Virus genome (UHGV): UHGV-1756682
Length of the DNA stretch: 20,317 bases
Strand: one strand, 5' to 3'
Source: a virus
Shown in pieces: positions 2,977-5,746 of the stretch. A program made the position numbers and the translations under genes. The notes beneath the pieces were generated by a model that worked only from the letters and a program-made list of their open reading frames with translations, was not told the origin of the DNA and ran no database searches. Every line of letters begins with the position of its first letter. Position 1 is the first letter of the stretch.

Positions 2977-3001
2977 TAAAAAAGCCCTCACACTGGAGGG
3001 C
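2977..3001 (-). terminator. rho-independent terminator on the leftward transcript
   Basis: Minus-strand sense reads GCCCTC-CAGTGT-GAGGGC followed by TTTTTTT: a 6-bp GC-rich stem (plus 2984-2989 and 2996-3001) and a 7-T tract (plus 2977-2983 as A). Confidence 0.7.
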
Positions 3002-3105
3002 AAAGAAGATTTCCAATAATCAGAACAAGTCGGCTCCTGTTTAGTTACGAGCGACATTGCTCCGTGTATTCACTCGTTGGAATGAATACACAGTGCTTCT
3101 CTGTG

Positions 3106-3303
3106 CTAAATAATTAAATCATATTCTGATTTTGTTAGTTTATAAGTACCTCCTCTGGTGTAATATGCAAATCTGTCTTTGCTTCCATCAGAATTGTATA
3201 CCCATCCACCAAATGGAAAGATAGTGTCTATTTCTCCAATATCTTTTTCACAACTAAATGTCTTTCCATTTTTAGTTGAATATGCCTTTCCAACTGTCAA
3301 CAT
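3106..3303 (-). CDS. small hypothetical protein (65 aa), AT-rich moron-like gene
   Basis: Track ORF; ATG 3301-3303 with AGAGG 5 nt upstream. DNA is visibly AT-richer than the flanks (not computed). Bracketed by two terminator-like hairpins. Confidence 0.5.
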   Translation of the reverse strand: MLTVGKAYSTKNGKTFSCEKDIGEIDTIFPFGGWVYNSDGSKDRFAYYTRGGTYKLTKSEYDLII

Positions 3304-3320
3304 CTTCGCCTCTGTTGTTT

Positions 3321-3350
3321 ATGACAAAAATGAAGGCCGACTATGCGGCC
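3321..3350 (-). terminator. tL1-like terminator candidate after the N-proximal gene
   Basis: Minus-strand sense GGCCG-CATAGT-CGGCC followed by TTCATTTTTGTCAT (stem plus 3335-3339 and 3346-3350). The stop codon of the 207-aa gene lies in the loop. Confidence 0.5.
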
Positions 3351-3964
3351 TCGGAAGGAAGTCCAATCATCTTATTCAAATCTTCTACCCGTAAAGCAGG
3401 AAGTGCTGTACTTGCTTTATCTGCTTCTTTTGGTAGCAACTCTTTGCTTTCAGGCCAAACTTCAATAAGTCGCTTAACTGTTGTGACTGAGTTCAAAGCA
3501 GCCCATACATTTGATTCGATATCCTTTTTCTTGGCTTCAAGTTTTTGTTGCAATGCGCAGATTTCATCAAACCTTTTTGTTATTTCGTGTTCTGCGTCAA
3601 ACATGCATTTATCTTTTTCTGGGGTGGGTAGCAATATATCTTCGCCGTTGCCGTCTTTCCCATATGAATACCAGCCAACCCTTCTGCCAGATACAGTCAG
3701 ATAAATTGAAGTAGAACGAACATCGCATGAGTAAAATGAACATCCCATCTTTTCAAGTTCTTCACTTATAGCTACTAACTTGGATGATAACTGATCCACT
3801 TCCTCAGTTTTCTTTTTCCCGCCAAACGCAACAACTCTGGCGTCAAGTGCAAGCTGATTCTTTAACTTTGTTACTTCTTCAAGTTCAATGAAAACCCCAG
3901 ACTTAATTAAAGCGTTACGAGCGATTTTCTCTTTCATTCTCGTAGTTAAGCGGATTGATGACAT
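3341..3964 (-). CDS. hypothetical protein (207 aa), first gene after N in the PL operon
   Basis: Track ORF 3341..4024; preferred start ATG 3962-3964 with GAGAGG 7 nt upstream. No TM segments seen and no family recognised. Confidence 0.6.
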   Translation of the reverse strand: MSSIRLTTRMKEKIARNALIKSGVFIELEEVTKLKNQLALDARVVAFGGKKKTEEVDQLSSKLVAISEELEKMGCSFYSCDVRSTSIYLTVSGRRVGWYSYGKDGNGEDILLPTPEKDKCMFDAEHEITKRFDEICALQQKLEAKKKDIESNVWAALNSVTTVKRLIEVWPESKELLPKEADKASTALPALRVEDLNKMIGLPSEAA

Positions 3965-3975
3965 ATTAATTCCTC

Positions 3976-4275
3976 TCAAATAAGTGGTTTGCTGCCTAAT
4001 TTCATTTTCTGGCGACCAACACAAGTCACACCAATTTCACTGCGTGGCTTGCGGTAGTAAATACGGTTCTGTTTACGCTCGACTTCTTCTGCCTTCTTGC
4101 AGCGAAGGCTTCCGAGTGATGCTGCTTTGTCTGCTCTGACGCAACCAGAGAGCTTTAGCGCAATTTTTCGCGCCAGTCGCTGCTCTTGCATTGCCTGCTC
4201 ACGTTGAGCCTGTCTGCGTGCTCTGCGGCGATTTCTGGCGTTATCGTCAGCCAGATATGTAATGACTACTGCCAT
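3976..4275 (-). CDS. N: N-type transcription antiterminator
   Basis: C-terminus NRIYYRKPRSEIGVTCVGRQKMKLGSKPLI closely matches lambda N (...TWYSKPGERGITCSGRQKIKGKSIPLI, from memory). N-terminal arginine-rich motif NARNRRRARRQAQREQ. ATG 4273-4275 with GGAGG 5 nt upstream. Confidence 0.85.
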   Translation of the reverse strand: MAVVITYLADDNARNRRRARRQAQREQAMQEQRLARKIALKLSGCVRADKAASLGSLRCKKAEEVERKQNRIYYRKPRSEIGVTCVGRQKMKLGSKPLI

Positions 4276-4381: not shown

Positions 4382-4424
4382 TTCCCGCATTTCGGCGGGA
4401 CAATCCCATCAATGTTAAAGAGCC
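4382..4424 (-). promoter_or_regulatory. nutL (boxA plus boxB)
   Basis: Minus-strand sense GGCTCTTTAAC (boxA, plus 4414-4424), a 13-nt spacer, then TCCCGCCGAAATGCGGGAA (boxB hairpin, plus 4382-4400). Both elements recur identically at nutR. Located between PL and N. Confidence 0.7.
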
Positions 4425-4469: not shown

Positions 4470-4556
4470 AGAATACTGTAGGTATTTTATTGTGTAAATA
4501 CCCAAGGTATTTATTTTTGGTGAAATAATGATAAGCAAATGAATACAAAGGATATT
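4470..4556 (-). promoter_or_regulatory. OL operators and PL promoter
   Basis: Three 15-bp AATAC-N5-GTATT palindromes: OL1 4472-4486, OL2 4497-4511 and a weaker OL3 4542-4556. Candidate PL on the minus strand: -35 TTTACA (plus 4493-4498), 17-bp spacer, -10 TATTCT (plus 4470-4475), overlapping OL1 and OL2. Confidence 0.6.
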
Positions 4557-4643: not shown

Positions 4644-5012
4644 TTAGTCAGCGAAGGTTAAGACGAGAATTACCTTAATGATGTCTGCTACAACAGACAC
4701 GGCCATAGATAAACCAAAGACGATCCAAGCCATAGAGATGTCTTCACTACCATCGTATAGCGTTCCGTAATCACTGGTGTAAGGCGTAAATGTCGCGCCT
4801 TGATACAACAGGTATAAGCTTGAACCATAGAGGATAAATGCAGATATCCATTGTATTGCTATGATCACCAGAATCATGAAACGAGCTGATCTATGCGCCC
4901 AAGCCTGGCTTATTTTTTCTGATAGAGATTTCGCAATAAAAGCATGCGCTAAGCCGTAAATTGTCGATATTGCCAACATCCCCAAAAAGCTTGCTATAGC
5001 GGTTCCAACCAT
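4644..5012 (-). CDS. small integral membrane protein in the rex position (candidate lysogen-expressed exclusion or conversion protein)
   Basis: Track ORF 4644..5033; preferred ATG 5010-5012 with AAGGGG 6 nt upstream, 18 nt after the cI stop on the same strand. Three long hydrophobic segments. No similarity to lambda RexB seen. Confidence 0.6.
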   Translation of the reverse strand: MVGTAIASFLGMLAISTIYGLAHAFIAKSLSEKISQAWAHRSARFMILVIIAIQWISAFILYGSSLYLLYQGATFTPYTSDYGTLYDGSEDISMAWIVFGLSMAVSVVADIIKVILVLTFAD

Positions 5013-5029
5013 ATTCGCCCCTTGCGTGA

Positions 5030-5746
5030 TCAAACCAGCCTTAGTTTTGTCTCAATTGCAACGCCTATAATCTTGCAGTTTCCATTGATTGGCACGAGAG
5101 GCCATGCAGGATTAAGTCCCTTGAGGTATTTATTTCCGCCGTCGATTATCAGCTTCTTGAATGTTGCTTCGTTAGAGTCAGAAAGTTTTGCTATGACCAA
5201 GCTGCCGTTGATCGCCTCCCTTCCGGTATCGAAAAGAACGAATGTTCCCTCTGGAATGCTTAACCCAACCGGTGCCGTCATTGAATCACCTTCCACTTTA
5301 AGCCAGAACGCATTACCTTGAATATGCGCGTCAGACTCAAGCCAAACATCTATGTCTTTAATGGTGTATGGTTCGCATGCTTCACACCACGAGCCAGCCT
5401 GGATACTGCTTAACACCGGATACCTCTTTCCTGCTCTGTATTCCCCTGCATACCTTACGTTGGCATCGCTCTTAAGGCTTTCTGCCTGTTCTGCAACCTT
5501 GGCAGCAATTGACTGGCTAAAATCAGCAATTGAGACTTGCAACAATCGTGCAAAACCAGATGCAACCTCAACGTTTAGCGCGTTTCTGCCATTAAGATAA
5601 TGCCCTACCGCTCCTTGGGTGATACCCAGTTCATCAGCAATTGAGTATTGGGTTATTCCCAATTCTTTCTTTTTTGACTCATACAAAGCCTTAAGCCGCT
5701 TAGCGTCTTCCAGCTGTTCTGTCGTCAGTGATTTTTTATTTTCCAT
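5030..5746 (-). CDS. cI: CI repressor (HTH plus LexA-like S24 autopeptidase domain)
   Basis: N-terminus MENKKSLTTEQLEDAKRLKALYESKKKELGITQYSIADELGITQGAVGHYLNG parallels lambda cI. C-terminal domain has the Ala-Gly site (SSIQAGSW), GDSM serine and FKKL lysine. Confidence 0.9.
   Translation of the reverse strand: MENKKSLTTEQLEDAKRLKALYESKKKELGITQYSIADELGITQGAVGHYLNGRNALNVEVASGFARLLQVSIADFSQSIAAKVAEQAESLKSDANVRYAGEYRAGKRYPVLSSIQAGSWCEACEPYTIKDIDVWLESDAHIQGNAFWLKVEGDSMTAPVGLSIPEGTFVLFDTGREAINGSLVIAKLSDSNEATFKKLIIDGGNKYLKGLNPAWPLVPINGNCKIIGVAIETKLRLV

Follow-up and report, generated by a model that had tools for sequence, protein, structure and literature searches.

An optional AT-rich gene placed in front of the PreS/tL2a element in the early-left operon of a lambda-like phage

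The window analyzed here is a stretch of 20,317 nucleotides from the virus genome UHGV-1756682. It represents a lambdoid, HK620/P22-like phage or prophage of Escherichia coli, and its closest DNA matches are vB_EcoP-611R6, Kapi1, and HK620. The early-left operon lies on the minus strand in the order pL-like promoter with operators, boxB-like hairpin, N-like gene, Nmad5-family gene (nucleotide modification associated domain 5), a 65-aa ORF (here ORF65), cIII-like gene, kil-like ORF, RecT, and further genes (Table 1). A gap of 9 nt separates the Nmad5 gene from the N-like gene that precedes it, and a scan for hairpins with T-runs found no terminator between the two, including any of the tL1 type. 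In other phages, the position of Nmad5 is taken by Ral or other small genes. Elsewhere in the window, a 129-aa ORF at 4644-5033 on the minus strand directly follows the cI-like repressor, at the place of rexB. It is hydrophobic by eye and apparently membrane spanning, and neither PADLOC nor NCBIfam has a significant match; it may be an exclusion or defense gene expressed from the prophage.

Table 1 Features of the early-left operon around ORF65, with positions in the window
Feature	Position	Strand	Description
pL-like promoter	4498-4470	minus	TTTACA-17-TATTCT; operator-like inverted repeats on the flanks, ~4470-4520
boxB-like hairpin	~4385-4401	minus	CCCGC-CGAAAT-GCGGG; upstream of the N-like gene
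N-like antiterminator gene	3976-4275	minus	phrog_271
Nmad5-family gene	3341-3964	minus	PF18757, E = 6.6e-71; upstream neighbor of ORF65
Upstream hairpin	3333-3352	minus	GAGGCCG-CATAGT-CGGCCTT, 7-bp stem; T5 at 3326-3330 after CA
Shine-Dalgarno sequence of ORF65	3309-3313	minus	AGAGG, 5 nt before the ATG; read from the sequence
Optional segment	3097-3311	minus	Shine-Dalgarno sequence, ORF65, and 9 nt past the stop; from alignments with HK542, 2G7b, lambda, and Stx2a phage
ORF65	3106-3303	minus	65-aa protein, 7.3 kDa, pI 7.8; phrog_15499 member; predicted SH3/Tudor-like small beta-barrel
PreS module	2977-3096	minus	12-bp hairpin (3064-3091), PreS/LPR1 body, and tL2a
Downstream terminator	2984-3001	minus	GCCCTC-CAGTGT-GAGGGC, 6-bp GC stem-loop; T6 at 2978-2983; homologue of lambda tL2a, 3' end of PreS
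Third backbone hairpin with T-run	2944-2963	minus	Just upstream of the cIII-like gene; lambda counterpart at 33493-33512
cIII-like gene	2741-2911	minus	56 aa; phrog_550, E = 2.3e-21; HK542 annotation; downstream neighbor of ORF65

ORF65 had been noticed in a sequence-only reading of this DNA, which placed it between the N-proximal gene and cIII, in the most AT-rich stretch of the left arm, and described its product as rich in Gly, Tyr, and Thr and probably in beta structure. This description holds throughout. The coordinates and the translation given for the ORF are exact, its neighbors are the Nmad5 and cIII-like genes, and the 65 residues of its product include 8 Gly, 7 Thr, 7 Lys, and 6 Tyr, with an all-beta secondary structure predicted. 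The comparison of composition with the flanks that the same reading proposed reveals a clear difference: the GC content of ORF65 is 31.3%, against a window mean of 46.6% (sd of 5.0% over 198-nt windows; about -3.1 sd), and its GC3 is 19.7%, against 34 to 45% in neighboring genes. Only 0.03% of all 198-nt windows are as GC poor, every one of them overlapping ORF65, so that the minimum of the entire 20.3-kb window, rather than that of the left arm alone, falls on this gene.

ORF65 belongs to phrog_15499, a family already catalogued in PHROGs v4 without an assigned function. Its residues 1 to 65 align with profile positions 1 to 65 at an E value of 2e-48, and the profile is matched by all 27 aligned sequences, ORF65 and 26 homologues. 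A word-indexed protein search with ORF65 returned one cluster only. When 1.8 billion representatives were searched exhaustively with HMMER, 31 matches were obtained, about 26 of which are small homologues of 53 to 102 aa and 34 to 69% identity with the common motif GKxY..(K/R)NG ... YPFxG.V...DG..DR(I/F)AY(Y/F)T..G.Y....S.YD. Conserved positions include Y8, D43-R44, Y54, and D62. The long matches (P0011 with SPRY repeats, P0026 with Rib repeats, P0024, and P0025) were judged to be repeat artefacts, each containing 5 to 7 matched stretches, and their domains are either unrelated or not significant. No match to ORF65 was found in Pfam, in NCBIfam, or, at E values up to 1, in PADLOC, and a PDB profile search with the family was empty. 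PDB entry 6xi1 was rejected as a homologue, its E value of 1.5e-4 being the sum of four repeats of ~6 bits (a GxWxYNxD beta-hairpin motif), none of which is significant singly. All homologues examined lie in phage early regions amid small accessory genes, with repressor/Cro, ERF, SSB, AAA_24, CsrA, and methylase or deoxyribosyltransferase genes nearby. The GC content of the distant homologues tracks that of their own genomes, for example 55% in a Pseudomonas prophage of 59% and 28% in a contig of 29%. A locus search based on ORF65 among species-representative genomes found nothing, and one based on the homologue P0003 recovered only ORF65-like copies in viral contigs.

The fold of the product was modeled with AlphaFold2. 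The model built on the 27-sequence alignment of the family has a pLDDT of 97.6 and a pTM of 0.84 and was used instead of the poor single-sequence model (pLDDT of 48). According to this model, the ORF65 product would be a single-domain small SH3/Tudor-like beta-barrel, a fold class that is clear in the prediction and from which a function cannot be read. The model resembles GK0453, YfhH, the Tudor domain of SETDB1, PsaE, HspQ, VapX, and SPbeta YorP in fold class, as well as the RNA-polymerase-binding C-terminal Tudor domains of UvrD/PcrA, the CarD RID, the Dda SH3 domain, and the NusG/Spt5 KOW domain. With the SH3-like small beta-barrels compared (UvrD/PcrA Tudor, CarD RID, NusG/Spt5 KOW, PsaE, YfhH/GK0453, and YorP) it shares 6 to 21% identity, a resemblance of fold class only, with no testable functional residues in common. 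None of the SH3-like families reached significance in the profile search or in Foldseek against the PDB, and these searches gave no close solved relative. The structural neighbors of ORF65 in BFVD include many uncharacterized phage proteins of the same fold, with TM scores of up to 0.79.

Alignment with related phages places ORF65 in a sharply bounded segment of 215 nt that begins 8 nt before the ATG and ends 9 nt past the stop. In lambda, HK542, and Stx2 phage, about 10 nt (AATAAACACT or AATAAATACT) replaces this segment, and the window shares the sequence on either side with lambda, HK542, and Stx2a phage; the upstream conserved part starts inside a hairpin, at the 3' arm GGCCTT(C/T)ATTTTTG. 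These alignments and the base composition mark the ORF65 segment as an optional insert of foreign composition that occupies a fixed slot between backbone elements. Since the homologues have about the GC content of the genomes that carry them and ORF65 has only 31%, it was probably acquired rather recently, from a phage of low GC content. A direct repeat, ACAGAG, is present at both ends of the insert (3311-3317 and 3098-3103, minus strand). A simple deletion between the repeats would not give the exact lambda-type filler, and the event could have been either an insertion or a deletion.

How widespread is this arrangement? The PreS module that follows ORF65 (described below) occurs at 3,199 places in 2,237 of 5,426 complete E. 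coli genomes and in about 325 phage records, four of which carry ORF65. A DNA-level search of the same 5,426 genomes, which is unbiased as to the protein, found the ORF65 segment in 8 genomes, at full length in six and truncated by IS3 in two. In E. coli CE10 (NC_017646.1, ~831325-832705), an IS3-family element lies in ORF65 and the first 77 nt are gone; strain N32 is alike. With a quarter of the E. coli copies cut in this way, the gene is evidently dispensable for prophage maintenance. The protein-level search recovered ORF65 in phages 2G7b and PhiR11_1, and 842 indexed blocks of wider assembly collections contain the exact protein, against 221 with its A7S variant. The surroundings of the gene vary greatly. 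Upstream, ORF65 is preceded by Nmad5, Ral, or proteins of 83, 107, or 149 aa; downstream of PreS follow cIII-like, Ea10/DUF2528, TolA-like, or sie-like genes or proteins of 82 or 138 aa; and immunity and recombination modules also differ among the loci. The distance from the ORF65 stop to PreS is the same in all 24 full-length loci examined, 10 nt to the searched region and 9 nt to the module as defined here. This pattern fits one ancestral insertion that would then have spread by homologous recombination via the conserved flanks. ORF65 is thus a rare accessory early gene of lambda-like phages.

Both structures that the sequence-only reading had seen around the ORF, a hairpin with a T-tract upstream and a strong terminator downstream, are present, the former at 3333-3352 and not at 3321-3350. 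The upstream hairpin has a predicted energy of -11 kcal/mol (z of -3.0 against shuffled sequences). The TAG stop of Nmad5 falls in its loop and its 5' arm within the Nmad5 coding sequence. It should be weak as a terminator because two bases (CA) separate the stem from the T-run, and a ribosome terminating on Nmad5 should hinder its folding, so it is probably a weak terminator that is sensitive to translation. Both lambda (34068-34084) and 2G7b have a closely similar hairpin with an identical 3' arm behind ral, and HK542 and Stx2 phages, which have no ORF65, keep the hairpin. Seeming compensatory changes between the Nmad5 and Ral contexts may reflect homology rather than selection for pairing, as the arms are mostly alike.

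The downstream terminator corresponds to lambda tL2a, whose stem-loop lies at 33933-33950 in lambda and at whose site a terminator is annotated in the HK97 and HK106 records. The ral-ea10 interval of lambda encodes an Hfq-dependent sRNA, LPR1, now renamed PreS, of ~88 nt, which is processed to ~68 nt and expressed in the lytic cycle; it raises dnaN translation and aids phage DNA replication, and its 3' hairpin and U-tract constitute the early-left termination site tL2a (10.1101/2024.10.31.621285). The strong terminator next to ORF65 is therefore this already known PreS/tL2a element. Over 119 nt (3095 to 2977), the window has 3 differences from the lambda ral-ea10 intergenic region. Counting 88 nt back from the U-tract would put the PreS/LPR1 body at ~2978-3065, with the 12-bp hairpin just 5' of the 88-nt RNA, and the fold of the module has a z of -5.4. 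The copy in the window is complete, with the tL2a terminator, a single-stranded seed region, and the 12-bp hairpin. In lambda the module comes after ral and the 10-nt filler, whereas in the window Nmad5 takes the place of ral and ORF65 lies between it and the module, without forming part of PreS. Rfam has no family for PreS. An Rfam search of the whole window gave no family at gathering score, and the matches near ORF65 were all at chance level, the RyhB match (16.5 bits) being the terminator itself.

The third hairpin with a T-run, just upstream of the cIII-like gene, has a lambda counterpart that we take to lie near tL2b on the lambda map. It may be tL2b or a piece of the regulatory structure of cIII mRNA. 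As for the two hairpins that flank ORF65, the comparison with other phages identifies both as elements of the backbone, present without the gene.

How, then, is ORF65 expressed? A simple consensus scan for sigma-70-like promoters on the minus strand at 3304-3700 found none, although weak or non-sigma-70 promoters may escape such a scan, and neither a promoter nor a terminator of its own was found inside the insert by the scan and the insert boundaries. We propose that ORF65 is a horizontally acquired accessory gene of the lambdoid pL operon that is read from pL (probability about 0.7); its status as a gene and the architecture of the operon, taken for themselves, are highly likely. The AT-rich segment of 215 nt would sit between the hairpin that ends the upstream gene and the PreS module that ends at tL2a. 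Transcription would start at pL, run through the N-like gene and Nmad5, and reach ORF65 once RNA polymerase has passed the weak upstream hairpin, most likely with the help of N; transcripts stopping or processed at tL2a would carry PreS as their 3' end. A dependence on N is plausible because, after N, the hairpin just upstream of ORF65 is the first element that resembles a terminator, with tL2a second. Being read from pL past this hairpin and having no transcription signals of its own, ORF65 would be expressed early in lytic growth and not in lysogeny.

Three other explanations deserve consideration. Is ORF65 a gene at all? It is short, has no Pfam family, and was left unannotated by PGAP in four of the six full-length copies from complete E. 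coli genomes, as might be expected of a chance ORF inside AT-rich non-coding filler. This explanation is effectively refuted by the pattern of conservation. Eight copies selected at the DNA level (the window, phage 2G7b, and the six full-length E. coli copies) all retain an intact frame and an invariant AGAGG Shine-Dalgarno sequence. Substitutions among them are biased to third positions, eight of the 10 variable sites being synonymous third-position changes and the other two conservative replacements (A7S and T53A), an excess of synonymous changes with P of ~1e-4 to 8e-4 against an expected synonymous fraction of 21 to 27%. The chance-ORF explanation also leaves unaccounted for a diverged protein family in genomes of 28 to 59% GC and a very confident fold prediction from co-variation. 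The gene is intact in every full-length copy examined, in at least six flanking contexts, and the outcome that the sequence-only reading had named as speaking against it, an ORF absent or disrupted in all related phages, is not what is found. From the sequence evidence, ORF65 is a real gene. A second explanation, favored by the sequence-only reading, is a classical autonomous moron, that is, a gene with its own promoter and terminator that is expressed from the repressed prophage and confers a fitness or exclusion trait. The concept of the moron, or accessory mosaic insert, reportedly goes back to comparative genomics of HK97 and HK022, and ORF65 resembles morons in being an extra gene of strongly deviant composition between elements that are contiguous in relatives and in its sporadic occurrence across many otherwise unrelated mosaic backgrounds. 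Hairpins with T-runs on both sides of it, and the presence of exclusion genes such as sieB in the N-cIII interval of lambdoid phages, also speak for this explanation. However, both hairpins occur in lambda, HK542, and Stx phages without ORF65, the downstream one belongs to PreS/tL2a, the coding strand has no promoter-like site upstream, the insert holds the Shine-Dalgarno sequence and ORF65 only, and PADLOC has no match. Because the flanking hairpins are pre-existing backbone elements, ORF65 is not insulated by signals of its own, and it differs from morons in lacking its own promoter and terminator, in lying inside the pL operon on backbone signals, and probably in lytic-early expression. An autonomous moron is hence quite improbable. 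What survives of that claim is the foreign, optional gene, borne out by its composition and by the 10-nt filler in relatives, and not the terminator casing; similarly, of the two modes of expression suggested for it, antitermination by N remains plausible, and a promoter of its own finds no support in the scan.

A third explanation is that ORF65 and PreS form one functional module in which the barrel binds RNA or the sequence or translation of the ORF modulates the maturation or activity of PreS. One ancestral insertion event suffices to explain the constant spacing between the two. Lambda PreS works without ORF65, more than 99% of PreS modules have no ORF65 beside them, and distant homologues of ORF65 exist in unrelated phages, which may or may not have PreS. 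In addition, the protein has no sequence relation to Hfq (hhalign probability of 0.07%), and the predicted duplex between PreS and ORF65 mRNA is no better than with shuffled sequences (p = 0.26). A joint module is therefore very unlikely, and an accessory gene read from pL is the explanation that we retain.

What might such an accessory gene do? Ral, Gam, Kil, and CIII, effectors of the lambda pL operon, act by binding host proteins. ORF65 is like them in operon, timing, and similar size, but unlike them in that it has no sequence or family relationship with any of the four. Its most likely mode of action, proposed tentatively, would be similar: the small protein would bind or inhibit a macromolecule of the host or of a defense system, stoichiometrically and during early lytic growth. 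Small size, a single compact SH3-like barrel, a place in the early operon by Ral or Nmad5, patchy occurrence, and a lack of enzyme-like features point to a binder. A bolder version of this proposal, which we regard as unlikely, is that ORF65 founds a phage-wide family of 7-kDa SH3-like barrels (phrog_15499 and structural relatives) that serve as early inhibitors in anti-defense or host takeover, and that in E. coli phages it may be functionally tied to PreS, for instance through binding to Hfq, RNA, or RNA polymerase, the ORF65 mRNA being the precursor of PreS.

On its own, ORF65 is an instance of ordinary lambdoid mosaicism, and its overall value is modest. The locus carries a warning: small ORFs in this region that look flanked by terminators may simply sit among the backbone terminators of the tL2 cluster. 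The small proteins of phrog_15499 form a family that is evolutionarily validated and confidently folded in prediction. Because ORF65 lies where host-takeover and anti-restriction genes are most concentrated in phages, it would be reasonable to include the family in anti-defense screens. The insertion of ORF65 also serves as an experiment of nature, showing where the PreS module begins on its 5' side (3096 downward, including the 12-bp hairpin). As the insertion point coincides with the 5' limit of the conserved module, it suggests that PreS needs no promoter immediately upstream, which would fit processing of PreS from the pL transcript.
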